From positions 1-64,000 of the forward strand of contig JABANN010000017.1 of the NCBI GenBank assembly GCA_013115125.1: DNA of 64,000 bases, read 5' to 3'. Origin of the DNA: Perkinsus olseni. Taxonomy: Eukaryota. The position numbers were made by a program, and so were the translations under genes. Position 1 is the first letter of the stretch, and each line of letters opens with the position of its first letter. Positions 71 through 58,186 of the stretch are shown piece by piece. The notes beneath the pieces were generated by a model. The model did no database searches. It had not been told where the DNA came from and saw only the letters and a program-made list of their open reading frames with translations.

Positions 71-71
71 G
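1..71. repeat. (TGT)n microsatellite, truncated by the window start, ending 16 nt before the MmpL ATG
   Basis: Perfect tgt repeats from position 1 to 71. Confidence 0.97.
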
Positions 72-87
72 CTTCTGCAACTGTCAA

Positions 88-2908: not shown

Positions 2909-5564
2909 ATGTACCCTCAAGGGGATCCCCTTAGCCCCTCTCTTGTTGATGGTCCCCAAGTGGGACGCATCTACACCAACGGCGAGAGGAGCGACGCTGG
3001 TGGCTTGGACGAGAAGAGGGTTGTTAGCCCGAGTTCCTGGCGAGATGGCGTGGGCACTCTTGAGTTGAAGAATACGTTTATCTCTCTCCGCCTCCTGGAC
3101 CCGGTGAAGGGAGTCGTCGACGCTGATTCCGAGGAGGAAGGGAGCCCGCCGGACTTTACTGTGGATGATGATGATGACGATGCTGAATGTTTGCCTGAGT
3201 CGACCTGCCTGCTCCGGATGTCGTCCCGAGTACACAAGTCGCTGCAAGGCAAGGTGGCGTACCGACGGGAGCGGAGCTGCCCTGCGGCCATGAAGGCCGG
3301 GGTCTGTGAACTTGTCCAACACCAGGGCTCCACCGATCCTGAGTTTGATGGTGAGAAAGACCAGGCGCATGGTCGATATTAGCTGCTTGATACGGCAATT
3401 AAGAAGTCCCTCTCAGATCTCGAAGAGGGTCACAGAACGCTGGTCTGTGAAGGAGCGGTCGACGATGCAGCTGAGAGGAAACACGACTACCAACTTACTA
3501 AGCGAAGAAGATCACCAAGGAAAGGACGTGAGACGTTTGAGGAACCCACACCGTTGACCTAGCATCTACTGTCCCAATGGGAGCTGCTACGGATGTCTTT
3601 ACGGCGAACATCAACTTGAGTGAAATTGCCCCCACAGTCGAGCACTTGTTCAACTCCGCGATGTGCCCTTGTGAAACTGATCTCTCTAGTGAAGCAAATG
3701 GTAATTCGGGCCGAATTATTCGGCGAAATGTGGTACTCGAGTTCGCGGTTGGTATGGACACTCTGTCACTGCTAGCGCGTCCTCAACCTAACAAAGGTGC
3801 CCACCACTTTCTTGTTGCTCAGGGGGATCCTCCTTCAAGACCGACAATAGAAGCACAGCTCCAACGCTGATGTATACTCCGGGCCGGAGACAGGGCAACT
3901 TCAACCACGACTACAGCAACCGCCGTTCGTCCCGTGGCCTCGTCCTGGGCGCCGCCCGCCCGGCCAATGGGCTCTCCAGTAACTGCAACAAAATTTCCAA
4001 CGGCAACGAATCCTCAGCGGCCGGTATGTGCGTTGGAAGCTACTAGATTAGCTGCCGTGATAGCCCCATCCGTGCTCAGATACACGCTCCACCGTCATGC
4101 TCCGTAACATCCCATACTCCATGGGACAGTCGAGGGTTCTGGACGCCCTCTTCACACTGGGATTTCAGTAACGCCTCGGCTGCTTCGCTGGGGAGTCTGT
4201 CCTCTCCGGTTCAGGTCCAAGATCGACTTTTTCTATGCCCCTCTGGATTTTTCCTCGGGCAACAACCTCGGGTACGCCTTCGTCAATCTACGGAGGCCGG
4301 AGTATGTTGATGAGTTTTACAATAGACTCAACGGTAAGACGGCCAGGACTGTGGGTTGGTGATAACCACCAAGACCACCACTGCTGGAGATGATGATTGT
4401 GATGTCCCTCAGACGTGTGTCTGTCTCAACTGGGTGATGCGTGGAATGTCAAGAGGTTGCAGGTGTGTTGGGCACGCGTGCAAGGTGAGTCTGCCAAGGT
4501 GTGACTATCACGCCGGACCAGCAGCTCTATCGTAGGCTTCGAAGCGAATGTGGAACACTACCACAACTCCCCTGTCATTGACATGCCGGAGGGCTATCGC
4601 CCGATAGTCATCAACGATGACGGCAGCCGGGCCACGTTCCATCACCGTCATCACCAGCAAGACTATCCGAGCAACACGACGTACATTCATCGTGATCGGA
4701 GCTGCGATGAGACTTTGAAGGACACTTTCTCTCCCGTGACTCCAGAGACGAGCGCGGTAACCCCAGTCCGAGCTTGCGAAGCCTCCTGCAGCGGCGACCT
4801 GCAGCTGCAGCAGCAGCAGCAGCAGTATCTCACGTATCCCTGGCCCTCAACTAACATACGCATGAGCGCCACAGACAGACGACGGTATTACAGCCGAGCT
4901 GGCAGGTGAGTGGTTGTAGAAGTTGTGTCATGTGGCAGTCGCCAGCATGCCTTCGCTCCGTCGATTCACCTGTCACTCTCGTCTCATGTCCGATCAGACT
5001 GTGTTGTGATCGGTCTCCTCGGGCTTTCCTCCTTAGGAGACCAGACCCACTAGACGCTGTCGGCCCTGATGGGGGACTTCTGACCACCCCTGAGTTCATT
5101 CCGGCTTCAATGCGGAACGGCCGCGCACATCGCCATCACCACCACCACCGTAGGCCCACTCAAGGGAAGGACATACCACACTTCCCGCAGATCGAAATGG
5201 GAATCGTCGACGGGCCTACACGACTGACCTCAGTGCTGTTGGCTTCGAGTCAAGCGTGATGCATTTGCCTGGGGATCTCGGGTAGTGGTGGGAGTGCACG
5301 TTCCGAGCTGACGATCGACCTGTGCTCGTCAGGCCCCCTCCTTCCGAGATCACCATGTGCGTTGAGAATGAATCGACTACCCCAACTCAGAGTGGCGCAG
5401 TTGCCCCTACCATTCCTCGGCAACGTACACTCTCCTCCTCGTCAACTTCAGTGACTTTACTTAAGAAGTCTGTTGACTACCCTGACAGCACACGGGACGC
5501 TGAGGGCGGCGGCGGCAGCATCGGTCATGGCACCTTGGGAGCGGCCTTCTCTCCTGGGTCCTGA
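2909..5564 (+). CDS. Mei2-like RNA-binding protein (RRM_2/RRM3 type), multi-exon; termini uncertain
   Basis: Spliced exons at ~4080-4620 read STVMLRNIPYSMGQ..LGFQ / SKIDFFYAPLDFSSGNNLGYAFVNL / VCWARVQG / FEANVEHYHNSPVIDMPEGYRP, the Mei2 C-terminal RRM signature. Confidence 0.8.
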
Positions 5565-19258: not shown

Positions 19259-20314
19259 GAAGAAAACCAGGTTCAATTCCGTCAGATGGTACTCGTAGTG
19301 ATGTTAAACAACCTGTCTTGTGTTGCAGTGGAACTCTTGGTCGAGTGTCTCACAGATGTCTACCAGATGACGTGCTAAGTGAGACCGTGGGAACTGGCGT
19401 AGCTGACGCTCAGACTGAGCGGCTCAGTTCCGTCCGAGTTGTCATTCACAGCCTGTGATAAACATCTTTGACTCAACAGCACGCTACAGACCCTGTGGGC
19501 GCCTGAGTCTAGTTGCGGGAGGAGACTCCTCCATGCCATGCAAATTAGGAGAATTGCTCGCAGTTGCACGTTTTGGCATGGTCTTCGAGGTCCGGTTGAT
19601 GGGTCTCTTCACTGTGTAGAGATTGTCCCTATACTGCACAATAATTGTCTCCGATTTTAAAATTATGCTGTGTCGTTTATAGCGTGACGCTAGAGCGCAT
19701 TACTCAGATGTTATTGTTCTTTAAGCTCGTGTAAAGCCTACGGCCTTTACTCATAACGAGTGTCTTGGGTTTGGTTCAATTTACTACACTGTCGTCAAGG
19801 ACGACTCGTCATTACGATGGTAGAGGCAGGAACACAGAGCACACCCACCCCCAAATCCCTGGCCACTCGAGTTAGCCCAGTACGTGTCCGCCGCCGAGCC
19901 TCTGTCGTGTTGTAAAAACGGCGCAGTGCAGGTTAGATGGGGATACAGCCTCTAGTGCTCTGAACTTTCTCTCAAAGACTTGGAATCGTGCAAGTGCCTA
20001 AAACTTCGCAATTTCGCCAGTAGGCGGTGCCGAGGCTATCAAGCCAGGGTTGGGAGCATGCCAACGACGGCGAAGATTCGGTTTTTCGATTCGGTTGGTC
20101 GAGAGACTTCTCAGACACTGTAGTATCAGGGTGACTGCGAAATATCTAGAGGAAAGCCATGAATGCTTCGTAGACCACACGTCTCTCGAAGCTACTTGGA
20201 GATGTCGCGTCCATCACAGTTGGGAACGTCATGATAAGTCACCGTTACATTTGGCTGTCTGACGGAACTTGATAGGCTCACTGCCCATGGTGTCTGTGGC
20301 GTGTGTGAGTTTAG

Positions 20315-20363
20315 AGTCCAACTTAGCCGTACCGTCGGCCCGACGGTATGGCTAAGTTGGACT
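20315..20363. repeat. 24-bp-arm inverted repeat with a 1-nt spacer (one G/T mismatch)
   Basis: agtccaacttagccgtaccgtcgg-c-ccgacggtatggctaagttggact. Confidence 0.9.
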
Positions 20364-21579
20364 AGCACCACCGACGTACCTTTCTGACGGGGATTAGTTA
20401 AGCCTGTCAAAATTGCTCTGTTCATCCAAAGCCAAAGAACGTTGCTCTCAGGGCGAGGCCACTGCCCGTGGAGAGATCCATGTTCTCGAAGAAAACGGAG
20501 AGCTACTCTTCGACAAAACGGAGAACTATACCCGGGAATGGACATGTCGACTGTGAAGTGAGCCACCGTTGAGGTCGGGTGATCGTTGATAACGTTGCCA
20601 ACGGCAATACATACGGTAGAGGAGCGAGCTTATATACAGTTAATAAAGGATCTCGTGGAGACAGTTTTTTTGCAAGCAACTCTCGAGCTGCCATGATGTT
20701 CAAGGGTCATTTAGATACCTTCCTCTGTAAAAACCGATTCCAATGGCGCCTCAGAAATAGTCGTGTGGCCCTAGGAACGCAGTTTCCTACGGCGCTAAGA
20801 CCGTACCGTAGGTCTCCTGTCACCACAAGGGTCTTGTCAACACCATTTCGACTTTCGGCACTCAGTGATCTCCACCCCCCTTCGGCAACAGTTACACACA
20901 GTAATACCCAACCAGGTTCAACCGCCACCAACGAGGAAGACGGAACTTCCAGCCAAGCCGACTGCATGGACGCGCTGAGCGCGTCGCAATCGTCGAGGAT
21001 GCAAGAGCGATGTTTTCGAAATACCCCCCACCCACCTGACCCTACTGCATCTCTTCAGCCTCTCCTCCCACCCAGCAAGGAGAAAACTAGTTCGGGCATC
21101 TCATCATGGGACTCCCATGATGGGAGCGAAGGGCGCGGATTGAACTACCGGATGCAGCCCTCGAGGAACGCACGCCCGGTGGGCTGCTTCAAGCGCCGAA
21201 CCATTCCCCTTCCGAAAACTTCACCGCCTAACTATCACGCAACGCTTCACGGCATGATGGACACTACGACTGATGCAAGCATGTGCACAGCGCTGTCCTC
21301 TCTCCACAGGAAGTGCATCGTAGCTGTGATAAGTCAATAACGGCTGGCGCGGGAAGGCCTCTATGAAGCTGATGATGATGCTGGTGCTCATGGCTGCTAC
21401 CACGGGAATCGTGACCGGAGGGTAACGAAGGCGGTCGGAAAGTCGAAATATTCGAAAGAAACTGAGAAGGGAAAATACCGAGCCGCAATCTACCTCTCCA
21501 CTTCCTAGATGAAGCGCCCTTCAGTTCGATATCGCCCAACGTAGCGCAGCAAAGAATTTAATCACAAAATTTGATAACA

Positions 21580-35343: not shown

Positions 35344-36492
35344 ATGGCCCAACCGGTGACCGACGAGGCTAGTAATAACGAAAGAGACCGCCGAAGGCCC
35401 ACTCGAGTAGTCCACCCGTCGGTTCAGTCCTGGCCCAGTTGGCTGCCATAAGGGAGCAGGAGTGTGCTTCCTTACCCTTGGTGTCATCACCGTCACCCAT
35501 ACAAAGCTTCACTGAGCAGCTGGAGAGCAGCAAGGGTAGGGCGTGGTCCGTTGAGGGTGGCAAGGACGTCCTCTCAGCTCCCGATACGTTCATTGTGAAA
35601 TTGAAGTCTCTGCCGAAGGAGACCCGGATAAGACGGATACGACCGGACGGCAACTGCTTCTACCGAGCGTACGCCTTTGGGATACTGCAGGTGAGTGCAC
35701 ATCATCGTTGCCCGCTGGCTTTGTGCAGTAGTGGAGCGGGAAGCCCTACCCACTCACGCGTGTCGTATCAGGCCCTCAGAGACCACGGCAGAGAGCCGCT
35801 GCCTAACAGCACTACTGTGCTGCAGGCCTGGTTCCGAACGTTAGTGTCCACTGAGGCGTTGGAGTGCTGCGAGAAGGCCGGTTACCCGAGGTGCTTCCCA
35901 CGCAGTAGTACCGCTTCGAACGGGCTTCGGCAGGTTTACAGTGGAGGACCTCATGGAAGCATTCCTCGAGGAAATTGACAAGCTCGAAGGCTCCGATGCA
36001 GCAGTGGAAATCGATAGCGAGAACGATGCGTACATAGTCAGTTTCCTTCGGTGAGAGTTCCCGAGGCGCCTTCTAGGAGGAAAGTGGTGCTTTGTCAGGT
36101 GCCTGTCCAGCTCAGTAATGAAGCTCCATTGTGACGAGTATGCGCCCTTCCTCGGTCCCGAGTACAACACCATCGACCAGTACTGTGCAACCGAGGTGGA
36201 CCCTATGTATCGGGAAGCCGATCAGCTACCTATTGTATCACTGTCAAGGTGCGACCTAAGATACCCGCCCCTCCCGTCACTGCCCTCCCCTCACAGGTTC
36301 CTCCAGTTCCCCGTGGAAATCGTGTACATTGATCAGTCGCCCGAAACCATCCCAGGTGCATCACCATGGTGACCATCCCCCCTCAGTATTCCCTCTGCTT
36401 CAGCTAGACATACCTTCCCCTCTCTCAACCCCCTCCACCTCCCAACCGTCCGGCTGCTCTACCGCCCCGGCCATTATGACCTTCTTGTGTGA
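35344..36492 (+). CDS. OTUB1: Otubain-family deubiquitinase (peptidase C65)
   Basis: MAQPVTDEA/ILAQLAAIREQE; catalytic RRIRPDGNCFYRA; YCATEVDPMYREADQLPIVSL; LLYRPGHYDLLV*. Confidence 0.92.
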
Positions 36493-36598
36493 ACCAGTGT
36501 CATTTCAATTTGGCATAATCAACTTCTCGCGTTGTCAATCTTGACCGACTCGGAAGTAACAGTCCTGCTCGCCGAAGATTCCATTCACCCCATCGCCC

Positions 36599-37634
36599 AT
36601 GCAACAGTCGGGAGATTCTCAGGAGGACGAAGAGCGGCCCTATCAGGTCAGTCCCCTGGTTCTGTCAACCACAATCAACGACTCAAAAGATTTGGAGAAT
36701 GGCCGCTCTCAGACGTCCCTGCCTGCCTGGCCCCTGAACGAGGGTTCCCTTGTAAAGAGCCGGTATGACCAGCCAGTGGGAGGCGCCAGCTCGAGCGAAC
36801 GGCTGCAACGCCGACAGGAGCTGTGTGCTCGGGCGCGAGATGAAACGATCAGGATAATGAGCTACCGCCAGATACAGCGAGAGGCGGTACGCCGATAGCG
36901 GCCGCTACTGGGTTTATTTCATCCCGCGGTGTAGGTAAGGGAGGAGATGATAAGAAACAAGACGCTGGATGAGACGGAGAATGTCCAGGCCACGTAAGTT
37001 GCCATTTGAATGGGAATTGGAAACTAGAAAGACGGAGTTGTACAGTTACGAAAGAAACAACCGGTGGGGAGCAAAATTGAAGAAGTCGCCGTTCACGGAG
37101 GACTTGGTAGCTCAGCTGGAGCAGGCGCAGCGTCTGGCCGAGGAAAGGGAGATGGTAGGCAAACCTTAGGGAAGTGCGCGTGAGTTTCAAGTCCAACCCG
37201 ACAATCGGCTCAGCCACGGGAGTAATAGCTTATTAGTAATAGGGATGATGAGTTTTCAGGAAGAGAAGCGGGAAGCTCGGGAGCGCTACGTCAGACATCG
37301 CGATGCACGGAATTTGATTTTCAAAAGGGCAGTGGCCGACGGCGACAGATTGGAGATGCTGAGACGGTCGGCGATGGAGGGAAGATTATTGACGGCGATG
37401 ACGGTCGTTGATCAGGGAGAAGCGAGTGCTCTTGGAGAACGAGCGAAGGCTTGCTGCGATGTGTGACGTGGAGAAGACGAACGCCAAGGCCCTGCGGATA
37501 CACGAAGAACGGCAGCAGAAGGTAGGCTACTGATGATGATGGGTGGAGCTCAGTGTGGCTGTTGGTAGGAGATTGAAAGACAACAGCGGCTGTTGCAGAA
37601 GAAGATATCAGCAGTGATGGGTGGCAAGCGTTGA
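36599..37634 (+). CDS. Hypothetical charged coiled-coil protein
   Basis: Exons rich in E/R/K (RWGAKLKKSPFTEDLVAQLEQAQRLAEERE; IFKRAVADGDRLEMLR) separated by short GT-AG introns. Confidence 0.55.
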
Positions 37635-37807
37635 CGCTATCAATTTATCAGCTCCTCGTTGTTGACTTTAATATGTTGCGTCTTTAGTCAATCATATTGA
37701 GGTCTTCATAGTCTTAACAAAACACGACCCATATAACATCAAAAACACTCACATAACAAAGTGCTGTTTACTTATTATTGGAGGGACCGTGGAGGTGGTA
37801 ATGAAAT

Positions 37808-39172
37808 TCAATCACTGCTACTGCCACTGCTGCTACTGTCGTAACCTCCTCTCTTGTGCTTTTTGTCTTTTTTATCTTTCTTATGCTTCTTATCCTTCTT
37901 GTCTTTTTTATCCTTCTTTTTCTTCTTCTTGTCATCTTCATGGTACTGCGGCAACACACGATAATAAATCAGAACAAAAGAGAACCTCCTCTCACCATAG
38001 GAATGACGCCCTGCTGATGGCCATACATCTGCTGGGCACCGTAGGCCCCCACGGCCGTTGCTGCCACCATCGGCACTGCACCCGTTGGCGTGTAACCCTG
38101 CTGGGCCTGATACCCGTAAGGAGCGGGCGGCTGCTGCTGTTGGTACGGCGGAGGAGCGGTCGCCTGAGAACGTAACGCACTCGATCGTGGCCAGACGATT
38201 CCCGTTGCCGTACCCCATAGGCTGCAGCCCCTCCGTATGGTGCTGATGGTGCTCCAGAGGAGATAACAGTAGCTGCTACCTGTGATGAGACATGTGGGAA
38301 TCAGGAGCTCCTAGAGCAGCACGATGTCTCACCGGCTGTTGCTGTTGCATGCCTGGCATCATCATCGCCGGAGGAGGAGGGCCACCACCCATGACGGTTG
38401 CTGTCACTACCGGAGGGCCACCACTCTGACGAGAAGGAAAATCAACTAACGACCCTTGGGAGGATGGACGGCGCACCATCATCGGAGCTGCTGTCTCGGG
38501 CAGCATGGTGATGGCCACCGATAGAGACCCCGCGGGTTTGTCTTTACTCCGGTACCTGCACTACTCCATCAAGCGGTGGCCAAGGCGTCCTCGTTCCCGT
38601 TCCCCGTGTGAAATCGGAAGGAAGGACACATCCAAGCACGATAGACGAATAAGGGTTCCCCTCTCCGAATACTCACAGTGCAAGATCGCCAGACCATCGG
38701 CCAGCGGAGGCGACGGCTGCCATACTGACTGTAGCGGACCCCACCTGAAGGGCGGCACCATGAGAATCTCACAAACCCTCCCCCCTTCGCTGACAGTCGC
38801 GAATAACGAACTAACCAGCCCTTACAAAATCATCATCTTTGATGCTTTCCTTGTCCATCACTTTAAACGTCATCTCAGGCTCCATACCGTACTGCAGTAT
38901 AGTCGTCTCGTTCCACGTGGGGTTCGACCCGACGTCCTTCTGAACCTGCAGTGCGGAGACTCACTCAGAAGCGGCCTAACGACCGGTAAGACCTTAGTTT
39001 TGAACTTCTTGCCTTTCCCAAGCTGGACCACACAGTACCTGTATCGACAACGTTACGAATTAGTCGCTCAGCGAGCCCACGCCTACGGATCCATCTTGCC
39101 GAAGAACTCCGTATCGTGAAGGTTCCGAGCGTAGCGCACCTCCACTCTAACCGCGTTGTACTGATATGACAT
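37808..39172 (-). CDS. C2-domain protein, paralog 1, with a P/Q/G-rich tail and a KKDKK repeat
   Basis: VRVEVRYARNLHDTEFFGKMDP/YCVVQLGKGKKFKTK/VQKDVGSNPTWNE..FKVMDKESIKDDDF/VGSATV. Confidence 0.88.
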
Positions 39173-39481
39173 CAAAATTACAAACAAACTTCGCGAAAAG
39201 TGACCTTGCTCTGAGAGCCACATTCCTCAGCTTGCTCAGCAGGTCCTATCCAACACGGCTATCCCCCACAGAGAGGTTCATCGGAGCCAGTCCGACTAAG
39301 CCGTACTGCCGGCGTTGGACTTTAACTCACACACAAAAAGTTGGTACGAACACGACTACCCGGAGAAAATTGACGCACGCTGCCGGCCACGCTAGCACAC
39401 AACCGAGGGAAGGCTGACGAACGCAAGACTCCTGTGGAGACACAATGGACAGTAAACATTAGCTTTTTTTAGCTCTGATGG

Positions 39482-40922
39482 TCAATAGTGGGGATACGCT
39501 CCGACACTCGAGTGCTGTCCAGGTTGGACATACACCGCGGGCTGACCATCAGGACCAGGCGGCGACTGACACGACACACCGTTTGGCAATATGTGAAGAA
39601 CACAAACACCCACCTGATAGTTGCTTGTTACAAAATTAGCACTGCTGTACCCAGGGGCGCCAGGAGGGGCTGATGGTGGCCCAGCACTGAACGGCGGACT
39701 GTAGTACTGTTGCTGCTGTCCGCCCGACTGCACCTGCACGAGGGGTTGACCATCCGGACCAGGTGGGGCCTGAGGCACACACAAACTATAGCGTGGTACG
39801 ATGCGATAGTACTGGGCGGACCTGATAGTTGCTGGTGGCGAAGTTGCCGCTGTTGTACCCTACAGACGGCTGCGGAGGGGGGACCGATGCGCCACCGATG
39901 ACTCTGCCTTGAATCTGATAGAGAGAGTTCTACCGTTCACCACACTGCCGTGCACGATCTCACCATAGGCCCTCGGCCAGCATTACTCCCCGGTGGAGCC
40001 GTACTTATGACAGTAGCATTCACTACAGCCGGCGCCCCGCCTCCCCCTCCTTGAGTATACGCAGTTGCTGCCGTTGCCGCTGTTGCTGGCATTGCAGTTG
40101 CTACTACGGGCTGAGCATTCTGAGGAGAGGCACTTCAATCCCACGTTGTTACCCAACAGGGCACTCACCCCATACGAACTCGTATTGGTCACGACCGTGG
40201 CCATGATTGGCTGGGACGGCTGCTGCTGTTGATGATGAGACGCTACGGGTACTGCAGTCGCATGGGCGACTACTGTCGGCGTGGGCGTAGCAGTTTTGCT
40301 GCTAGGAGTACTCGCCATCCTGATCGCTACGTTTAACGTGCCGGCCTTATTCGCCCCGTCTCGATACCTATGCATAGCCGACAATGAGCACTACCGGAGA
40401 GTAGATGTATTACAGCACGAGATCTCCTTCCCAATGTCCATGCTTGGCGATGGAGGCCATGCTCACCCGCGCTGACCCTACCTGCAAAAGATACCTATCT
40501 CATACCAATCGGTTATCGTACGCTCGAGAGGCCAGAGGAGGGTTCCATCGCAATGACTTACAAAATCGTCGGAGCTAAAGGTATCTTTGTCCCACACTTC
40601 AAAAGAGATCTCAGGCTCATCATCATACTTGAACTCCACCGACTCGTAGAATGTCGGGTTTCTTCCAACGTCTTTTTTAACCTACCGGAAAATCATTCAT
40701 CCCATCCCGGAATCGAACCTGGGACGTCAGGTTGTCAAACCTACATCAGTCTTATATTTTTTCCCGCGACCAAGTCGGACTTTGACGTATCTGACAACGG
40801 TATTGGTAATGCTACCATCAGCGAATGGTATCTTACGGATCCATCTTGCCGAACATCTCCGTATCATACAAGTCCCGAGCGTATTTGATCTCGACCTTCA
40901 CTTTCCTCTTTCCCTCGGACAT
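39482..40922 (-). CDS. C2-domain protein, paralog 2, with an A/Q/P-rich tail
   Basis: VKVEIKYARDLYDTEMFGKMDP/YVKVRLGRGKKYKTD/VKKDVGRNPTFYE..FEVWDKDTFSSDDF; same intron positions as paralog 1. Confidence 0.88.
40682..40744 (-). pseudogene. 63-nt intron of C2 paralog 2 containing a tRNA 3' half
   Basis: gtaggt-ttGACaa-cctga-cgtc-ccagg-TTCGATT-ccggg-atgggat-g..tag. Confidence 0.7.
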
Positions 40923-41107
40923 TAAACTCAATAAAAATAAGACGACCGACCAACTGACGAGGAAAGCTACTCCGCAAGCAGCCATTCGCTATCACCCGCC
41001 GTAATGGGAACACAAGAGCAACCAGCTCAGAGTGAAACTGAGCATAAACAGGAGTTACAGACGAACAGTATCAGAATGATGAACAACAATCACTAAAGAG
41101 TGCATGA

Positions 41108-44100
41108 TCACTCGACTTCTACGATCTTGGGCGTCGGCGTCAGCTTGTTTTTATCTACGAACTTCTCTAAAACATTCATATACCTGAGGGGACGAAAGCC
41201 ACTCATCCAAATCGAACCCCACTCCGGCGTTCACCGTGGATCCAATCAAACCATACTTCATGTATGATACATGGTAGTTTCCAACGCGAACACACGCCGA
41301 CAAATATCCCCGAGCGAGAAACTTTCATCATTCAGCCCCGCAAAAAGGACAAAATTCGACCTAGCATGTCCAACGATTGTACCTTTGTCCTCCCTTCTGC
41401 CAAGTGTCGTTATGCGTGGCAGTACCGAAGCTCTCAAAGGTGCACTCCACTCCATTGTCATTACAGATGTCGTGCAACTTCGCCATATGCGACGGAGGGA
41501 CCTAAGAAAGCGAGGCACACTCGAGCCACTTCACAGGCTTGATTCCTCCGAGCGTGATGTTCGCTCCCTTACGATTTCATCCTCGGCCGCCGATAAGAGT
41601 AAAACCGGTGTCCTGAGATAGATACTGTATTTATGTATTTAAAATACACTCGATGATGAACTCCAATATACTGGTGTGACGACGATCAAATCCCCATCGG
41701 GGATAGATATAGATTTCACGGTATCGCAACACAACAAAGAAGTAAGACTTCGCCTTGATTACAAGAATGCCGTCGAAGATACAGTCTGTACTCTACAGGT
41801 GGCACGGCGCACGTTCCAACGGTATAGCCCCCTGCCCTAGTGTAGATAGATCCCCCTGCAGACTGCGTACGTCGCCAACATGTAGGCCAAAAAAGAAGTG
41901 TCTGTTACAGACAGTCTGTAGAATACTTTCAGGAGCCCAACAAAAGGAGCCCTCAACTCTGAATAACCAAGTACCGAACTGAGCAATCCCATATCCTGCC
42001 TTGTCGTGCTAGCGCCGCGGACTGCGGACCCCAGTCGGCGATCGATGTACGTTAGCTGCCGGTGATCAAGAGGATCCACCTATTGAACACTTCCAAGTAG
42101 TTGCTCGCCGGGAAAGCCTTGAAGATCGCTAGCTCGGTGTCGTCCAAGACAGCTCCGCCATTACAGGCAGTCCCCCCCTGCGTGGCTGGCATATTCCTCG
42201 TTACGATCGTTCGATGCAACCTTCTAGCTCATAGGGCCGAGGTATGCCCCTGGTTCAACCGTTGAACTTCACCACGCAGCAATTAAATTTAGGTTGCGCC
42301 GGTTTCGCATCCCAGCTCAAAATTGTTCGGCGAGTGGCTACTGTACACTCCGAATGTTGCAGCTAGGACCAATCTCTCATGAACGCGGGATTATTCCGCC
42401 GGGATAGCGCTTGAAATCCGCACTGTCTTCAGGCCAGACTGGCCTGGCCAGTGCCTTGGAGGCTCCAAAGAGAACGATCGGGGCTCCAAGTTGGAGCCCC
42501 GATCGTTTTCTCCGGGGGAGTCCCTAACAACCAGGCCCTGGCCGATACGAGCCGACCAATGTATCCCGCTTAGGTCTAGAAAATCTATTCAAACTACCGC
42601 CACCCATGCAGCATCGGGCGATGGCTGATAATCTAGCTATGCATCACTCACGATGTCCCGTCAGCGCATATACTTCCTCACCAAGAGCTTCATTGAAGCG
42701 GTCGAGAGCTACCGACAGGCACCCAGCCATGAGAGTCTCATGATGAGACGCACTGCAATGGGCTAGCTAGGAAGTAAGCGGTGCAAGCGCCTCAACCCGA
42801 TCAGAAATTAGACCGCCCAGGAACGTTTCAGTCTAATCCGCACCCGTTCGCCTACCTCTTTCCTAGTTTCTCAACATACTTATAGGTCTCCCACTTGAGC
42901 CTCAGGAACGGTTTCTTTATCCACTCGAATCGCAGGAAGGGGAATAATGAGTTCACCATTAGTGATATAGAAAGGAATGTATTCTCCAGTATGAGACCTA
43001 GAAGAAGGAGACATCGGGTTCGGCAGTACGATGACGATGCTCACCCCTGGGTGGATGGCCCTCAGCTACTAGCTTCGCAGAGTACTCTGCCGCCACAGCA
43101 CCGCCTGACATCCAAACGCTCCGATTCTTGCCACAAGAATGGCAACACGAAATTCCAGTGAATGGAAGAGGACACGGATGCAAACCTTCGGCAAAAGGGA
43201 AAGCCATCATTCAGAAAGCCTTACCGAGTGATCGACCGAAGAAAAAGATATTCTCCGGATCGACCAAATCCTGGTTGCTCTGTATCCACTCGAACAGCGC
43301 GTCCAAGTCTTGCATTATACCTGTAGAAAATCGTCGCAGCCCTCGGCCGCGGTACCGTAGGTCTCACCATCTTCACTGGGCTTGCCAGTGCTGTCACCAT
43401 AGCCTCGGTAGTCAAACGCGAGGACATTAACTTTTAGAAACTGACATGAGTACACTTCCCGCAAACACGAAGGTAACGCCAGTAGTGTTTAATGGTGCCC
43501 GTCATGATAATGAAGCCTTTATTATTGCTGCACTAATATCGCGGAAGCGCTATAGTAGCCCCTTCTTTACGAAGAGCCAGGACCCTTTTCTATGAACATT
43601 CTCCCAGATCCCAAGCCGGCGGATACTGTTTCGGACTTCCCCGTACTACCGACGCCATCTGGCGGTAGTTGGGCATCCTCAATCCCATATTCCCAGCATT
43701 AGCGTGACAAAATACAACTGTTGGCGCCGTTGACGAGTCACTCACGCCACTAGCCTGGGAAGAAAAGACAATGAGACAGCGAAGAGCACAACGGAATGGA
43801 TGTACATGGATGAACCAAGCATGAATGGTCTGACCATCGGCAGTAGCCACTCTAACATCCTCAAACTTCATTCCAAGCTCAGCCGGCGACCGCATACCTA
43901 CAGAGACCAAAGATAAGCGAAAGACACGTCGTCGGCAGCTCACCAGGGGGATTTGAAGTAACAGTGGTGAATCCCTGAACCTCGGGCATCTGAGGAGGAA
44001 GAGAGGTCACTAAGGAACGAATTGAGGAGAGGAAAACTCGGCGTTGCACTTCCCAGAATTTTACATAAAGCATCTTCTCTTGGGACGCCACCAGTATCCC

Positions 44101-44297
44101 CAACAAGGCCGCAACAACGCCGAGACATATTAGTAATACTTTAGTCCTGAGAAGAGAATAAGCATCAGGATCACCGTGACTGTATAGAAAGGCGAATCGA
44201 TGAGAGGCCCGGGATAGGGCGTACATCCCCACTACTACCAGCTCATTGACAGTAGGAGCACGCCCAGTACCCCACCAATGATGACAAACCCATTCAT
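41108..44297 (-). CDS. ABHD13: ABHD13/BEM46-like alpha/beta hydrolase, with a 1243-nt intron at 41613-42855
   Basis: QEKMLY, VVFCHANAGNMGLR, AFDYRGYGDSTGKPSEDG, FFGRSLG/GAVA, LILENTFLSI, LLLSAAEDEI/VPPSHM, ATHNDTW; the Ser-Asp-His triad is present. Confidence 0.92.
42473..42507. repeat. Perfect 17-bp inverted repeat with a 1-nt spacer inside the long ABHD13 intron
   Basis: aacgatcggggctccaa-g-ttggagccccgatcgtt. Confidence 0.95.
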
Positions 44298-44480
44298 AAT
44301 GAGCAGTGAATAAAACTGGCAACGAGAATAGGGCCAAGATGCTGCTTTGTCGAAGATTTTGCTAGGAGCGCCGACGGCGTTGAGGAAATGCAAGAATAGA
44401 TAAGTTAGCAAGACTGTTGAATTTCGGACAGTGCAGGAGATGGTGGTTGCAAGAGGGTCGTTATTATAGTTCTTTATATA

Positions 44481-46397
44481 ATGTATAGAAGCCTTCCTGT
44501 CTGCAACAAGATCTGCGCACGGAAGGTTGATGAGAGGAATAAGGAAATACACAAACAGAAGTTGAAAGAAATGCGGTACTATGGTTGGACCTAAGATGCA
44601 ACAACTCGTCGAGGATCTTTCGATTTGGTGTCGAGCTGCCTTCAACGGTTGAGGGCAACTCGGCACCAAATCGAACCAGGTTGAAGTTCAACCTAAGATT
44701 ATCCGGTGCTCGGGCGATCCAGGGTTCTCTGGGTCTCTGAGCTAGATCTCGATATCAACTCATGCTTCTGAGAGTATTATTGTCACAGGTCAACCGTGGA
44801 TACTCGGGAGCCCCAGGTGTGCCACTTGGAGCATATGCGAATTAACGCAAAGCGTGAGCAGCTTCTTGAAGAGAGGTACTGAGAAGAATCCTCGACCTTT
44901 CTGCTTCTTTCTATCTTCAACCTCAGATACTGCGAAATCGATAGAGAGAATCGCATCTTGCTACAGGTAACGTTGATACCTAATTTTCACGATCTCTCGA
45001 CTTTTCTGCCTTCAGAAAATGTCGGACATAATGCGTCAACCCTCGGCCACCCTGCAGTCAGCTCAGCCCACAGGAGGAGTAAGGTTCGAAGCAAAGCCCG
45101 CACTGTGGCATTGTCCCCTTAGATGAACCAGCCTGGACCAGTTAGCCTGAATAAGACCCTCAGGAAGCGAGAACTTATGAGAATAACGAGGGTAGTGAAG
45201 GCAAGCCGGAGCGAGGCGTATCTTGGGTGTCTCAGGAGAACCAGGGGATTCTAAGACGAATACAGAATGCTCAGCCACAGTATAGTCATGTGAAGTGGGA
45301 GCAGAGCTACCGGCAGAACCGATATTATCTGAGGAACTGTTGTGACCTCCCGTTTGTACTGGAGAGTCCACGCAAGGTTCCAGAGGGAGACACTACCATG
45401 CTTGAGAGAGGCGACTTGAGCGTCTCGAGGAGCCCTGAAGGCAGTGCCGTGCCGACCGCTGTGGATGGGCAGGCTGCTGATAGAAACGACCTTAGATATG
45501 TACTGAAGGAAGGGCAGAAGCTCGGCACAGGGTAGGTATTATTCGATGAGTAGGGGAAGATTTGGTATGGCTAGATACTATCTCGTGGAGATGGCAACTG
45601 ATGGTCGGACTCTGACTATATCTGCTTACGATGGAGAGTCCCAGAAGACTTTGGAGCTGATCATAAACGAGAAGAATCATCGCAAGCTGTAGGCTATGGC
45701 CCCTCAGTTGAACTGATTTATGTAGCCTAGGTACCGGGAGGTAGCTGGGGACTATGCCAAATTAGCAGCGCGATTGAGCATAGAGGGAGACAGGCTCGTT
45801 CTCCTGCCACACGAGCCCATGCAGATGCCACCCGAACTGATGGAAAATGTAATTCCTACTCTTACCGAAGCCTCAGTGGGAGGGTTGACTCAGGCGACGG
45901 ATGCGCAGCCAGTGCCACCGAGGGCTCCTCCACAGGACGTGCCGGATACTCCGAGCGAATCTCTCACTGCCGAGGAAATGGTAGGCCGCCTACCGTAGGC
46001 GTGAACGTCAATCGTGCAGAAATACAGTTGTGAAGCGTTACTAAACAAATGTGCTTCCCCGAACAAGTTTTTGTTCGCGAATTCAGGACTCCGGAATTGC
46101 ATGGTCTATCGTTACCGGTGTGTAGTCGCCGATAGACCATCCCACAGGTACGACCATCCGTCAGCTCTCCTGCCCACCACCCAGATGCTGCGAGTGTGGA
46201 TTCGGGCGGTGGAGTTCCCCCGATAGAAATAGCTGGTAAGAACCATTGGTAATTACATACGGCAATTCAGTGTTTCTCTAGGACACGTGGAGGTGGCAGT
46301 GAGCATACCAAGCTCATCAGCAGCTGGTAGAGCCCCAAGAGTCTATGTGAGAGGGCTCACGCCGAGCACTCCTAGTGTACACTCTGGTTACAACTAG
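44481..46397 (+). CDS. CFAP97/Hemingway (KIAA1430)-domain flagellar-associated protein
   Basis: EIHKQKLKEMR..NAKREQLLEER/YCEIDRENRILLQ/KMSDIM..SLNKTLRKRELMRITR/ENQGILRRIQNAQPQYSHVKWEQSY. Confidence 0.8.
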
Positions 46398-46618
46398 GCA
46401 TGGAAGTGCTCATCAATGATACGAAGTTGTCGCTCATCAATTGATAGAAGTTGAGTTCAAATCAGTCAGGGCCTGCCGGGCTGGCCGTGCCTTATTCGCA
46501 CAGAAGCATGGCACCATTTAATGCTTGCCTTCTGCTATACTCAACATCTTAATAATGGGAAGAAACGAGGGAATAGTAGTGGGGAGTAGCAAGTATAATG
46601 ATCACGTTTACAGTTACA

Positions 46619-48160
46619 TTACGTAGAGGAAGGGGGGCCCAACAGTCTAGAGGGAACGTTGACGGTCGTGAACTCCTCAGGCTCGTCAATGACGACTAGC
46701 TCTTCCTCACCTTCGCGACTTGTAGGACGTTTTGCGAAGTAACTGAAGACTTGTTAAATGACCGCGCGCCACGAAAATACGCCGGGTTATTACGAAATGA
46801 AGGGCTCTGCAGGGCTGGGAACATTATAGCCATAGGGAGGCATAATTAAATCAACAAAGGCACAAGGCTCCGCGGTTAAGTTGATGAAGCTGTGTATCTA
46901 ACAAGAGGAATACCAACCCGCATCTCCGTACTCGTTGAGAGTCGGAGTAGTGTGAATTCCGGATTTTATAGTGAAGAGTCCTTCGAAAGCTTCGAGATTT
47001 TTATGACGGATGTTCCGCAGGCGTCGAGATGTGAGGACGAGTGGGTCTGCATCGGTACCCCATTCCTGAGGTGTTTCACTAGCCCTAACATTATTCGCCA
47101 TCGTGCTTAGCCATCTGATCCCATGCTCAGGAAAGGCGATTCCTCCCATATGGGTGGCTTTGAGGCCGTTTTTTGCAAGCGAGTGAGCGGAGGACCTCCT
47201 CTCAGCCACTAGGCCCGACTTCAACGACGGTATCGCATGTGGCCACTGGCTGCCATGCGCTGTTAGAAGCGGCAGAGGCAACACTGGCTCAGCACGTCAT
47301 TGTTCGACCGCTCTTCTCGCATCACTTGTGGCACAACGGCCTCATTTCTGCATGTTGCCTTCAGCCCGTACTGATTCATTATTACATTAGCATATGTAGG
47401 ATTGAGGAACATCGTAGTGCCTTGTTTATGATCTCCATTCAACTCTCTCACAGGTGATGCCTTGAAGACCTGTTCAACGCCATCACCAATAAAATGAGGA
47501 TCAGCTTCATCGAAAGAGGCACTCACCTCCCCAACCACTGCTTGGTATGGCGTCATAGGGTTCAACACATCAGCCGTTAATGTACCCGATACTACACGAC
47601 TGACTACGTTCTGATGGGGGTGATCTGATGGCGAAGAAGGACGTACTAAGAGGCAATACTGTACCCTGCTACTGACCATGATAAGGGAGAGTTGCCTTGG
47701 GCATGAGCATGAATGCACAGAGACAAAAGTCTGGTATATCCACAATCGATTGGTAAAATATATCCCCATCGCGAGCCCACTTCGGGATATCTGAAACGAA
47801 GTTGAAGTAAGGGCGAGTCGACCTGCTGACCCTAAATCTTCTCAATCTCACAACCACTTGCTTTTCCTCAACGCCCCGCACAGACCTGTACTACCTTCAT
47901 CAACATCAATTCGGAAATCTTCCGCCGTCATCGTCTCCATAGCGGCGTATATCTCCTTAAACGCGGTCTCCTTTTCATCAAGCTTACTAAGATCGCCTCG
48001 ACGACGATGCAGCACACCTAGACCGCAATAAAACTCGGCGTCTCACTCCCAAGAGTCACTCACCTATCAGATTACGCAACTTCTCCGGGCTCTCAGCCAG
48101 CCAGCTGAGATTGAAGGGCTGTCTATGTGGATGATGCGCTCGCCCTAAACCCGTTACCAT
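46619..48160 (-). CDS. ADO: Cysteamine dioxygenase/plant cysteine oxidase (PCO_ADO) family cupin
   Basis: LCAFMLMPKATLPYH/DHPHQNVVSRVVSGTL; PTYAN/IHSFINLTAEPCAFVDLIMPPY..SYF; three His ligands and the D-x-x-x-PPY motif are present. Confidence 0.82.
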
Positions 48161-48413
48161 CGAAAGAAATTTATTCATGCAAACTACAGCGCGACTCCGA
48201 GCTGCCCCACTGTGCACAAGACGACTGACTTGAGTGAAATGCTTAGATGATTAGTGAGGTAATTATCACAGATATCATCATCGCCATCATCGCCAGAGGC
48301 CACACCACTATGCTCATAGTAAATGTTATGAAACCGTAAGATATGTATATCGTCCAAAAGTACAAAATGCAGCAGCCTTCGATCATAATTATCATCAACA
48401 TTTTCTGGCACCT

Positions 48414-50697
<2,284 letters not shown>

Positions 50698-51366
50698 CGA
50701 CGTCTGTACGCTGGTCGAGGGACAAGTGGATATTGAAAACAAGACTGTCAGCGGCACTTCAGACGGCTGTACATCAGAGGAGAGCTCCTATTCTAACCGC
50801 TCGTTCGATGAGCTTATTCGAAGACCCAAGATCGATTCTGGAATCGGTGTCCTGTGAATACTTTTCACACGTAAAATGCGGCGGGAATTTTGGTTTATGG
50901 AACACCGCCAAATCAGACAGATCTTGCAATCTTCTCGCGTCTCGTGTTTCCTTAACGCAATCCATCCATCCTTCATTAAGGCCTCATTGAAGGTAACAAT
51001 GACCTCTCAGTTTTCATGGATCATCTGTAGTGCAGCTCGTGTGAGAAAGCGGTTCAGCAGCACCCTGTCGATGGTCGCGTTTCATATGAGCTCGAATTTC
51101 CCTGAAAGTTTCTTTTAAAACTAATTACGTTTGCTACGTGCAGTTTGTCCTCCTCTGAAGGTTGTTGCTAAATCACAGCTAGCACCTGATGTTTGCACAT
51201 CAGCCGGGCTGATGTGGTGGGCTGATGCAGCCCACCAGCTTACAGCGGCAGTACCTCACGGAAGTTAGGTGGGGTGAAGTGCGTTCTCTCGGTATGAGTT
51301 AACTGCACAAAAAATCAGTAACGAAATCAAGCTTACATTCTTCATTCTCCACAGTTTTTTGACTAG

Positions 51367-51828
51367 ATGATAATGATGATGAGCAGCAGCGCCCTCCTGT
51401 CAGTCCTGCTTAGTACCATCTACCTCTCTACTCTGCTCGCAGGGTGTAGTTCGAACGACAAGACAAGTAACACTACTACTACCGCACCAACCACTACTCC
51501 TGCGCCCACTTCTACCACTGCACAGAGCTTCTGTGGCAGCCTTCAGAGTCCAGTGCCTTCTACTGTGAAAGTAACGCTAGACGCTAACGGCGATATGTCC
51601 TTCCACGTGCCCGTCATGGGAGACCCTGTGGCCGACCTCAAGTACGAGTACGACGACTCTGGCAGAGACTTTCGGATAACCAATGTGAACACAAGCTCCA
51701 GTTTGAGCGACTTTAATTTCAAGTTCGCTCTTCCCAATCCTTCTGTTAAAGTTCAATCAACAAGAGGTGAGGAGTCGATGAACTTCACCCTTGGCTGGTT
51801 CCCTACTGCTGCCTTGTCCCGTTGTTGA
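51367..51828 (+). CDS. Intronless secreted/surface protein with a lipobox-like signal and a Thr/Pro-rich linker
   Basis: Hydrophobic leader ending LLAGC-SSNDK, then TTTTAPTTTPAPTSTT and a small beta-rich domain with 2 Cys. Confidence 0.7.
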   Translation: MIMMMSSSALLSVLLSTIYLSTLLAGCSSNDKTSNTTTTAPTTTPAPTSTTAQSFCGSLQSPVPSTVKVTLDANGDMSFHVPVMGDPVADLKYEYDDSGRDFRITNVNTSSSLSDFNFKFALPNPSVKVQSTRGEESMNFTLGWFPTAALSRC

Positions 51829-52888
51829 TCTGTTGCCGTACATATGCCACTTAGTTTTTGTTTGGAATATTGACTAGAACAACCTCACAGCTTCTACCCA
51901 CCGCCTTGTGTTATACAGTCTGTAAAGTGTGCGTCCAACGCAGGGAGTTGGCGATATTTTCGGCAATGGGTGAAGCGATTGCTTGGAGGGCACGAAGTGA
52001 CAGCAAAGTGCTAGGAGGTGCAAACGAGGAAGTAGCAGCTGCCGCACCCGCGGTATTTATGCGGAGTCTGATCTCGAGCGAGCTGATGATTGTGGGATAA
52101 GTTTGAGACGTATGATGATGATACGGGTGTGGGAACTGTTGTACCGCATTGTACTCGTCCCGGGCGAGTCGTCCATAGGCCGCTCATCCGCGATTATTTT
52201 TTCTTGTTTATCTAGTAGCGTGGGTGCAGTTCGATCGGTGGAAAGAGCCAAGTAGGCCCGATGCGAACTGCCCTGTGGTAGTGCGGTTACTCTTTGCCCA
52301 AGGGGGAAATTGTCGCGTTGAGACAATAGGGTGGCCCACCCTACTCCCACCCTAGGTGGGAAGAGCAGCAGCACGAGACGGTTTGCAGCTAAGACGGTCC
52401 GCTTCGAACTAGCGACGTCGCTGACAAGGCCAATGTCCTTGAACCGGAATTGTCCTCACCGACTGCATGGCGTGACATCTCCTTCGGGATACTATGTTCG
52501 GATTCCGGTCGTGTCGCTCAGAGTGCCGGATCACGGTTAAATCCTTTGGATTGAACTTCAATCATTGAAGCTTAGTTTCACAGAATCATCGCCCTACTAG
52601 CAGCGGAGCCAGATAACCCCAGCCGCGTGACTGAGGGTAGCCACATCGCCATGGAGAATACGTAAATGTACAGCACGTAGATGAGGTTCTCGAAGTCGAT
52701 ACTGACGGTAGCTATTCACAAGAGGGCTCCGTTATTGATGTGATGCACACGCAGACGCGATACTCCAACAGAACACTATTCCTCAGAATCGAAACCACAA
52801 TTACTTCTCGAGTGTGTTGTTTAGGCGGATCCACTAGTCGCAGACAGCAGCGTAGGGACCTGACCAATCGCCAAATCCTCGAACTCTA

Positions 52889-54237
52889 TCAGCCGACATG
52901 TACTACCGTTGGAGCTGGCAGCCTATCGATGATGGTCGCAACCTCGGCGGTGGAGAGGCTGAAGAAAAATTGGTATCGGGCCGACACATGGGGAATGTAT
53001 TACGTGTTGAAGGTGGTATCTTTCGCAATGCCAACCTCCACGTTAATCTCAGTGATCTTCTCCTCCATGACTTGGCGCAGCACAACCAGCGCTAAGTCCT
53101 CGGCCTACCACACGTTCGTCTACCACCTCCGGCGTGCTGTGGTATTACCTCCTTCAAAGTCATGCTGTCCTTGAACTGCTCCAGAAGGAGACTAGTAGCT
53201 CCCTCAGCAGCGGATCCGATGGCAGCAGCACGGTATCTTAGGTTGAAGCTGGCGTCTAGCGAAATGACAGCAGCGAGCACTACTTCGTATAGGAGCCACT
53301 AGGGTCAGCCATGAAGAGTTGAGGACCGTTATCAGCATCGACTCCCGCCACCAACAGGGCAACGCCGAAGGGTCGGGACATCGTCTAGCACATACACAAC
53401 ATCGCTGATGAGGCGAGCCTCAGTACGGCGATCAAAACAGCGGCACCGGTAACAGTGACACGGAAAGAACCATCCTGAATAACAAGTTCCGTGGTAATAA
53501 TACCTTCTTCTTCTTGTCACCCTTCTTCTTCTTGTCGTCAGACCTTGAGAAGTCCAAAGCCATATCGGAGATGCTGTGCACCTACAGACGACGGAGGTCG
53601 GACACCATAGTCGCCTCGCTAATATTACAATACTCTCAACCTGCATGGGCTCATTGTAAGTGAAGTCATGATTGAGAGCCTCAACACGAGCATGGTCGAC
53701 GAGGGTCCTCGCATCGGCCGTTAAGCCGGACATAGCACATCCAGCATGAGGGGCAATCTAAAAATAGCAAGTCGAAGGTACAGTCCCTCATACCACTCCC
53801 GCCACAACTCCCAGAAGATTCATACAACCCCCCAGAATGGAATAGTCCATTAATCTATAGTGAGCTAGGGTCGTTGAGGCGGCATAGTGGCTATAGCGAA
53901 GGAGCGCCCTTCCCTACCTGCATGATCTTCTCAATACTACTGGGTTCGATGAGGGGACCTGTGTAACAATACCACCACAGCACCAACAATAGCAGTCGTA
54001 GCTTACTTCCGATTCTCTTCTCTACAGCCAGTACTACTCCCTCCTTCGTAGTGATACCAATGGCCGTGGAACCGAGCTGAGTTCAGAATGAAGACGATGG
54101 AGGGGACAGCAGTCTAGCGGTACTGCCACCAATACTACCTTGACAGCCTCTATTGCGTATTCAACCTGGAAGAGACGGCCCTCTGGTGAGAAGGTGTTCA
54201 CGCCACGATCGTACTCACTCTTACCACCAAATGACAT
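52889..54237 (-). CDS. PSMA5: 20S proteasome subunit alpha type 5
   Basis: [85 protein letters not shown]. Confidence 0.96.
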
Positions 54238-54650
54238 AGACGAGTGAGAAGAACAAGGAGATTTAAGAAAACTAATTTAACTCAGCTTGTGCCACCGGGA
54301 CTTCCACTGTAATTTCGTGGCGCGCGACTGTAGAAGCCACCAATGACGGCCGATGCCGATACCCCTCCGGAGCTCAACACTTAACGCAAGCCAGTATTAG
54401 TAGTTTTTGGAATGAGCAGATACGTGGCAGTCTCGGCGGGAGGGGCGTTGAGGGGTACGGAGAGATGCCAACAGTAGCAAGAAGAGGAGAATAATGCAAA
54501 GATGATCATCATCAGTCCAGCAACAACTACCACTCAGTGACGACGATGGTTCCATTATTAATCTCAATATGCGTGCACATGTCAGCCGCTACTACTAGCG
54601 GCATCAGCAGTAACCTCAACGACTATTGGCTGCTCTTAGGGTCTTATCAT

Positions 54651-55807: not shown

Positions 55808-58186
<2,379 letters not shown>

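Follow-up and report, generated by a model that had tools for sequence, protein, structure and literature searches.

The 64,000-nt stretch of Perkinsus olseni DNA analysed here (contig JABANN010000017.1, positions 1 to 64,000, hereafter the window) contains, on its minus strand, an ABHD13/bem46-like alpha/beta-hydrolase gene whose coding sequence is interrupted at 41613–42855 by an intron crowded with short palindromes. The gene is best matched by proteins listed under the names Perkinsus chesapeaki and P. marinus, with 84–95% identity in the larger exons. Translated searches (tblastn) with the homologues P0001, P0007 and P0009 are collinear across the intron: residues of P0007 and P0009 up to 243/248 map to 42864, the residues that follow resume at 41617, and the end with the His lies at 41501–41340. 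Read on the minus strand, the intron begins with GTAGGC and ends with CAG. The 15 RNA-supported introns nearby are mostly 46–57 nt long, with one of 104 nt and one of 488 nt. The collinearity of the homologues, the GT...AG ends and the shortness of the neighbouring introns together indicate that the stretch is a real and unusually long intron, as it had been labelled in the initial annotation. An RNA contig running over it is unspliced, with a depth of 14.4 compared with ~140 on the exon side, and no spliced joint for the 1243-nt intron is found among the RNA joints listed.

The read depth over 41312–43967 is 83.5, the same as that of a single spanning contig. No other copy of the intron is found among the repeats of the window, and no repeat family matches it within the window. 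The possibility raised at the outset, that the intron is one copy of a repeat whose consensus already holds the palindromes, fails on this single-copy depth and on the window repeats. The open reading frames (ORFs) in the intron gave no Pfam match, and this cloud of ORFs was rejected as coding sequence on the strength of the empty scan. When metagenome contigs were searched with P0001 for orthologous loci, 63 pattern matches were returned, zero of them confirmed.

The P. chesapeaki and P. marinus proteins P0001 and P0002 (252 residues each) end at ...YVEKLGKK, the last codon before the long intron, and are without the C-terminal part, where two residues of the hydrolase triad, Asp and His, are found. 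Read-through of the 5' splice site in the window (42855–42986, minus strand) gives AGG TAG, a stop. Both gene models probably break off too early, at a long intron that corresponds to this one.

Palindromes with a single central base

Inverted repeats were tallied by arm length and spacer size in the intron and in the full window. The intron holds 11 inverted repeats with a spacer of one base and arms of at least 6 nt. In nine of them (41634, 41899, 41906, 42253, 42430, 42438, 42473, 42728 and 42735) each arm is 7 nt or longer, the arm at 42430 being 8 nt and that at 42473 being 17 nt long, and the two with 6-nt arms are at 42456 and 42687. There are no inverted repeats with spacer 0 or spacer 2 in the intron, and its entries with spacers 3 and 5 are spacer-1 sites read one base further inward. 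By chance 1243 × 4^-7 = 0.076 such repeats would be expected in the intron, which reproduces the uniform expectation of ~0.08 given earlier, and simulations giving 4.79 per window correspond to 0.09 per 1243 nt. All eight spacer-1 repeats of the initial annotation are real; its list was short by one, since the repeat entered there with a 6-bp arm at 41900 has a 7-nt arm from 41899, and it omitted 42687. The arms are unrelated to each other, as had been noted, and the overlapping A-x-A'-y-A chains described there are genuine, all of them having one fixed geometry.

In the whole window the number of spacer-1 repeats whose arms measure 7 nt or longer is 34, against 3.60 and 4.33 expected from Markov simulations of order 1 and order 3, respectively (40 simulations each, maximum 8), and 4.79 (SD 2.05, maximum 10) expected from 100 block-wise simulations that preserve the local composition. 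The excess is a property of the entire window and not of the intron alone. The mode of arm length is exactly 7 nt (23 of the 34). Among spacers 0 to 3 only spacer 1 is enriched; for arms of at least 7 nt in the window, spacer 0 has 6 repeats (3.70 expected) and spacer 2 has 1 (3.05 expected). Spacers from 0 to 16 are otherwise near expectation, save for spacer 4, which is considered below, and, weakly, spacer 8, with 8 repeats against 3.14, two of the 8 being one repeat on both sides of a gap of undetermined bases (N). The long palindromes, with arms of 17 and 24 nt, likewise have a single central base.

The 22-nt zig-zag unit

Most of the palindromes belong to one 22-nt structure, in which an 8-mer X is written as X[1–7] + revcomp(X) + X[2–8], that is, forward, reverse complement and forward again. 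We scanned the window for the general form X[1..L-1] + revcomp(X) + X[2..L] with L from 4 to 12 and compared the counts with 30 simulations, removing shadow hits when mismatches were allowed. At L = 8 there are 8 perfect zig-zags, against 0.00 expected. No perfect zig-zag is present in the window at L = 7, 9, 10, 11 or 12; L = 6 has one (0.10 expected), and the counts for L = 4 and L = 5 agree with chance. When up to 2 mismatches are allowed there are 14 sites of unit length 8, against 0.25 expected, and the counts are still above expectation with up to 3 (24 against 3.30) and up to 4 mismatches (53 against 22.18), which points to a tail of decayed copies. At two of the 2-mismatch sites, 19791 and 42385, a single substitution in the middle copy suffices. 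The intron contains five of the 14 (41899, 42253, 42385, 42431 and 42728), and a sixth, 41252, lies just past the stop codon of the gene. Three of the spacer-1 repeats that look like single palindromes (41259, 42253 and 20969) can be recognised as decayed zig-zags. The true signal of the census is made up of the zig-zags and a small number of odd palindromes with long arms.

The unit is 8 nt long in 8/8 of the perfect zig-zags and in 14/14 of those with up to 2 mismatches. The arms end at the edge of the unit: of the 16 palindromes contained in the 8 perfect zig-zags only 3 exceed 7 nt, compared with ~4 by chance. The 15 inferred 8-mers show a bias in base composition at position 3, where the symmetrised counts are T14, C9, G6 and A1 of 30, position 6 being the mirror image; the chi-square is ~11.9 with 3 df, before correction for the 4 positions tested. 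Such a mirror-symmetric bias is suggestive of a dimeric enzyme picking the target. The mean decay of the scars is ~12 substitutions in 330 nt. A diverged strain of the same organism, X7, differs from the window over the intron by 46 letters in ~800 nt, together with 39 gap letters, and the decay of the scars is of the same order as this strain divergence, indicating that the scars are young.

The palindromes are not an assembly artefact. In six runs from two studies every sampled word of 41200–46100 is present, although the assembly could derive from these very runs; a contig that was built independently agrees with 36000–55900 with 0 differences, and an RNA-like contig of 1300 nt from a third study (X10 record 8) matches 41585–42884, again with 0 differences. 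The 100-N gap and the repeat-flanked joins within the window might be cited in favour of a sequencing or assembly error, but with the sampled words and these contigs on the other side it is the least probable of the explanations that we have considered.

Comparison with X7 gives an indication of the state before the scar. Among the joints listed, two of the three X7 joints that have inserted letters land on palindrome clusters. One runs from 52157 to 52364 with the inserted letters GCCGTAGGCCGCTC, X7 skipping 52158–52363. At this place X7 reads ...CTCG GCCG TAGGCCGCTC, that is, it has one 8-mer, CTCGGCCG, and the window reads CTCGTCC CGGGCGAG TCGTCCA, followed by TAGGCCGCTC as in X7. The centre bases of the 22-mer at 52154 are C and G, the complements of the last and the first base of the X7 8-mer. 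By these letters, X7 carries what would be the empty-site allele and the window what would be the scar. The second joint runs from 42425 to 42475 with the letters GCT between, and the 46–49 nt that X7 is missing include the 42431 zig-zag and a 6-1-6 palindrome.

If the palindromes were functional, acting as protein-binding sites or as RNA or DNA hairpins in the regulation of splicing or replication, their concentration in the intron and near gene ends, and the presence of the intron in RNA contigs, would find a ready explanation. Arms that are unrelated to each other, sites that vary between strains and a decay at an approximately neutral rate are not what would be expected of such elements, and a 1-nt loop is unable to close a hairpin. 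We regard a function of this kind as very improbable.

Probable origin of the palindromes

We think it probable that a cut-and-paste transposon with an 8-bp target-site duplication (TSD) and with excision chemistry of the hAT type left the palindromes behind as scars at its donor sites. The transposon as the agent, and all of the steps that follow, we infer from the anatomy of the scars. The element would have lain between two copies of the 8-mer X. Its excision would seal each flank as a hairpin with the tip offset by one base, the flank base adjoining the element departing with it and the complement of that base being left alone at the tip; the hairpin of the left flank would read X[1–7] and then revcomp(X), and that of the right flank would be its mirror image. 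Host nucleases would then nick the hairpins at least 8 nt from the tip to give 3' tails, each the reverse complement of its own flank. The two tails would be complementary over exactly the 8-nt TSD and could anneal there, and after trimming of flaps and filling-in of gaps the product would be X[1–7] + revcomp(X) + X[2–8], 22 nt in place of 8 wherever the nicks fall, containing two overlapping 7-1-7 palindromes. Tails joined elsewhere would give a single long odd palindrome, such as the 17-1-17 and 24-1-24 palindromes of the window, and repeated visits at one spot would give complex chains. Scars would survive only where an additional 14 nt is harmless, in introns, untranslated regions (UTRs) and intergenic DNA.

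Offset hairpins together with annealing at the TSD would explain why the unit is always 8, why there is only one centre base, why the arms stop at 7 nt and why the strands are symmetrical. Hairpins lacking the one-base offset would be expected to leave 8-0-8 palindromes, and there are none in the window. Two marks of hAT footprints are found here: an 8-bp TSD, deduced indirectly from the scars and not from copies on either side of an element, and palindromes whose centre is the complement of the flank base that would have adjoined the element, as seen in the spacer-1 excess and in the two alleles at 52154. Fold-back synthesis, hairpin opening and transposon excision had been offered as separate options in the initial annotation. 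Hairpin opening and excision are kept here, in combination, whereas free-running fold-back is disfavoured, since the unit is always 8 nt in the perfect zig-zags. If the model holds, the uniformity of the product suggests that the hairpins are opened far off-centre and their tails then annealed, in place of short end-joining footprints; annealing-type repair would be dominant and classical end joining may be weak.

The chemistry proposed has close parallels. hAT footprints arise through hairpins on the flanks, opening of the hairpins and end joining, often at microhomology, with arms of up to 20 nt in yeast, and the hairpin model of hAT excision is attributed to Coen et al. 1986 (both in PMC5873905). 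In the same source the footprints of maize Ac/Ds, snapdragon Tam3 and Hermes resemble the scars of the window in the inverted duplication of the flank (TSD) centred on one base, the 8-bp TSD and the microhomology at the joint. The experimental series described there differ in being heterogeneous and mostly short, those of Candida albicans comprising 28 types in 128 events with arms of at most 3 nt, whereas the window has one dominant 22-nt product in which the whole TSD is inverted and annealed (PMC5873905 for the experimental series).

P nucleotides at the coding joints of V(D)J recombination, made by RAG, and the products of Transib are alike in that hairpin-capped flanks are opened off-centre to give palindromic additions. 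RAG and Transib hairpins are not known to have a one-base offset, and the Transib TSD is 5 bp. They would leave even palindromes with spacer 0, for which no enrichment is seen in the window. Introner elements of the parasitic dinoflagellate Amoebophrya, a lineage related to Perkinsus in the tree of PMC7789003, are a further case of invasive intronic DNA with inverted repeats. They are whole repeated introns with inverted repeats of 8–20 nt at both ends and direct repeats of 3–5 nt (PMC7789003); the intron of the window, by contrast, is single-copy, and its palindromes are local, mutually unrelated and also found in intergenic DNA.

Several observations weigh against excision by a hAT element. 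No 8-bp direct repeats flanking terminal inverted repeats (14 nt) were found in the window, two low-complexity matches apart, and no transposase was found with Pfam among 300 of the 313 window ORFs of at least 75 aa, the last 13 ORFs (61716–64000) being outside the scan. The repeats of the window are only tandem and simple repeats, one gene-family duplicate and the repeat flanking the gap. The target consensus of hAT elements is nTnnnnAn (Ac-type) or nnnTAnnn (Buster-type), and nTnnnnAn is absent here: of the 15 sites, a small sample, 3 have T at position 2 and 4 have A at position 7. Classical short hAT footprints are not enriched in the window, 6-mer direct repeats at period 8 numbering 12 against 13.5 expected, so that the repair outcome would need to be unusually uniform. 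Simple 7-1-7 palindromes outside the zig-zags, the long palindromes, the CAG repeat and the gap repeat number ~7 where chance gives 4.8, and add nothing to the case. A perfect direct second copy of the TSD is found near only 1 of the 14 apparently single 7-1-7 palindromes (37581, 23 nt upstream). With 7-nt arms, spacer 4 has 11 repeats in the window against 2.76 expected, two of the 11 within a CAG repeat; the model leaves this excess unexplained, and these repeats might be repair products of another class or genuine stem-loops. The complex chains at 51186–51237, 52327–52358 and 41626–41648 are incompletely explained and leave room for templated, transposon-independent events. Finally, among the joints listed the polymorphism is fully readable at one site only.

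Two alternatives draw on these observations. In the first, errors of repair or replication independent of any transposon (a double template switch, fold-back or 'snap-back', or templated insertion of the polymerase-theta type) would produce local copies in forward, reverse and forward orientation. A double switch does yield this order, the window contains no transposon, and the chains at 51186–51237 and 52327–52358, the inside-out pair at 42456 and 42473 and the spacer-4 excess are closer in appearance to a patchwork of templated copies than to the outcome of a single clean excision. Short template-switch mutations, reportedly of the kind described by Loytynoja and Goldman in 2017, and the correction of quasi-palindromes are similar in that local inverted repeats are made or perfected in one event. 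They differ in that no fixed unit length, 1-nt centre or target bias is expected of them: template switching would give a spread of lengths and spacers, and the unit in the window is 8 in every perfect and near-perfect zig-zag and never 7 or 9–12 in a perfect one. The halting of the arms at the edge of the unit also speaks against switching, snap-back of a single strand needs a loop of ~3 nt or more where the spacer here is 1, and the palindromic base bias of the 8-mer points to a dimeric enzyme that chooses its site. We therefore judge this class of error to be unlikely.

In the second alternative, the chemistry is the same and the agent is something other than a mobile hAT element, either a member of another superfamily with a TSD of ~8 bp (MULE, P-like, Zisupton, Novosib or one not yet known) or a domesticated transposase that cuts host DNA. 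The target bias resembles nnTnnAnn, unlike the nTnnnnAn of hAT elements, and no hAT gene or element appeared in the scans of the window. Several superfamilies have TSDs of ~8 bp, and MULE elements likewise form hairpins on the flanks (PMC3706591 and PMC5499845). For the MULE Muta1 the likeness extends to a TSD of 8–9 bp with hairpins on the flanking DNA, but the hairpin is 43 + 43 nt, an even palindrome unlike the odd-centred 22-nt scar, and more than 90% of excisions in yeast are precise (PMC5499845). Among the families whose chemistry we compared, a centre formed by the complement of one base is described for hAT only (PMC5873905). Such an agent is improbable in our estimation, only slightly less so than the transposon-independent errors, and excision of the hAT type is preferred to both.

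Distribution and meaning of the proposed scars

The positions of the scars and related features are collected in Table 1. The scars lie in non-coding DNA and avoid coding DNA. The longest ORF over a site has a median length of 262.5 nt, compared with 354 nt for the window (Mann–Whitney p = 0.007, 22 sites), and the 18 spacer-1 palindromes in 36000–55900 lie mostly in RNA-poor bins, in the 1243-nt intron or at its edges. The sites form two clusters, at 19.4–23.1 kb and 41.25–42.75 kb, which would fit local re-insertion or merely the largest neutral targets. Scars of the same kind are found in intergenic DNA at a density comparable to that of the intron. At 45980 the first copy of the unit would appear to preserve a putative 5' splice site, and the arrangement at 37558–37595 looks like a scar in which the copies of the putative target site are parted by 16 nt of filler.

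Table 1 Positions of scars, palindromes and other listed features in the window; X is the 8-mer unit of a zig-zag
Position	Feature	X or sequence	Remarks
3703..3724	perfect zig-zag	AATTCGGC	
19407..19428	perfect zig-zag	CGCTCAGT	first in 19.4–23.1 kb cluster
19791, 20970, 23107	zig-zags, 2 mismatches each		cluster companions of 19407, with 21105 (perfect)
20315..20363	24-1-24 palindrome, one G/T mismatch		read as long hairpin-derived tract
21105..21126	perfect zig-zag	CATGGGAG	
37558–37595	8-mer present twice, 23 nt apart	GGCTGTTG	7-nt inverted copy (CAACAGC) precedes second copy
41252..41273	zig-zag, 1 mismatch		~70–90 nt past stop codon of the gene; 3' UTR or intergenic
41613..42855 (-)	intron of ABHD13/bem46-like alpha/beta-hydrolase gene		1243 nt, between codons for ...YVEKLGK and TPVLLLSAAEDEIV
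41626..41648	direct 8-mer pair, then AAATACA	TGTATTTA TGTATTTA	7-1-7 palindrome at 41634; composite, incompletely explained
41899..41920	perfect zig-zag	TGTCTGTA	
42253..42274	decayed zig-zag		2 mismatches, both in third copy
42385..42406	decayed zig-zag		scores 2 mismatches; one middle-copy substitution accounts for both
42431..42452	perfect zig-zag	AGGCCAGT	within 46–49-nt stretch absent from strain X7
42456..42468	6-1-6 palindrome	TTGGAG-G-CTCCAA	inside-out form of 17-1-17 centre, 15 nt upstream of 17-1-17
42473..42507	17-1-17 palindrome		interpreted as long tract from a hairpin, the join making no use of the 8-bp duplication
42728..42749	perfect zig-zag	CATGAGAC	
45980..46001	perfect zig-zag	GGTAGGCG	seems to start at putative 5' splice site (..ATG/GTAGGC)
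51186..51237	complex chain of copies that overlap, some inverted and some direct	CTGATGT / GGGCTGATG / CAGCCCACCA	taken to reflect several events in the same place
52154..52175	decayed zig-zag, 3 mismatches		strain X7 allele is single 8-mer CTCGGCCG, putative empty site
52327..52358	complex chain, then direct repeat	TAGGGTGG-C-CCACCCTA, then CCCACCCTA twice	missing from strain X7
52549..52570	perfect zig-zag	GATTGAAG	
18913, 32747, 33724, 45002, 46060, 54585, 55826	spacer-4 repeats with 7-nt arms		examples
46763–46776 (+), 54313–54326 (-), 60080–60093 (+)	motif	CGCGCGCCACGAAA	with 1–2 mismatches at 8624, 25616, 32429

It had been suggested that the process behind the palindromes lengthened the intron about 25-fold over the local norm. 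This is not shown by the data: recognisable scars make up 181 of its 1243 nt, with an estimated ~110 nt of inserted letters, which is insufficient for a 25-fold difference in length. The tail of decayed copies indicates that older scars fade from view, and the share of the intron that derives from scars could be larger. The simplest reading is the reverse of the earlier one, namely that the intron is a large neutral target that has gathered scars, as have the intergenic regions at 44.6–46.6 kb and 51.9–52.6 kb.

A number of other observations were made in the window. It begins with an intronless frame of 880 codons (1–2643, plus strand) for a membrane protein of the MMPL family (RND-type; Pfam E = 2e-69), preceded by a run of TGC codons at the window start; such a frame is unusual here, the neighbouring genes carrying an intron every 100–200 nt. 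Identical stretches of 66 nt (22216–22281 and 22382–22447, a period of 166) lie on both sides of the 100-N gap, which places the gap inside a tandem repeat rich in AGTAATA-type units. A tandem array of ~12 copies of a 32-nt unit occupies 57353–57736. Two 50-nt stretches, 39084–39133 and 40834–40883, are 86% identical with similar translated segments around them, and mark two adjacent gene pieces that are paralogous and have a C2-domain-like exon among them; the read depth over 38656–39319 is 3–4 times the single-copy level. The motif CGCGCGCCACGAAA has 6 occurrences with up to 2 mismatches in the window, against 0.28 expected, and at two of its places many genomic contigs have only that short stretch in common, as loose ends; it is probably a common promoter-type motif. 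At 54273 an X10 RNA contig ends with 11 unmatched letters, TGAGCCAAGAT, whose reverse complement matches part of the perkinsid and dinoflagellate spliced leader. This would be trans-splicing onto a minus-strand gene for a proteasome alpha subunit, and it speaks for a perkinsid origin of the DNA, in line with the Perkinsus-like look of the genome.

A literature search, which left aside supplementary footprint tables and the primary footprint papers on yeast and Ascobolus, turned up no account of scars of this type as a feature of whole genomes, nor any for Perkinsus, and among the matches listed in a search on end joining nothing mentions Perkinsus. The excision chemistry itself is known; what would be new is that one 22-nt product prevails, and is densely spread, in the genome of a perkinsid. 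A wider picture may be sketched, tentatively and with more doubt than confidence, of a perkinsid genome with a dense and young record of excision, amounting to ~14–30 recognisable scars per 64 kb and up to 4–6 per kb of neutral DNA. A hAT-like element of unusual target preference would be mobile still or would have been so recently, and its hairpin-capped donor breaks would be mended almost exclusively through the annealing of long tails that stem from the hairpins, a mark of repair driven by microhomology or annealing with little classical end joining. The '+14 nt' scars would then be a major class of insertion and a source of steady growth of introns and intergenic DNA in the lineage.

If the palindromes are indeed excision scars, the 22-nt zig-zag would be a searchable signature with which past excisions of elements with an 8-bp TSD could be counted genome-wide without the element being present, and rates of excision and insertion, local hopping and the choice of target could be read from one assembly. 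The uniformity of the product would inform on the repair of hairpin-capped breaks, and would bear on genome editing and transformation where tools are poor. It would also supply a concrete insertional process, adding 14 nt per visit and preferring neutral DNA such as long introns, by which the growth of some introns would become a testable question in this lineage.

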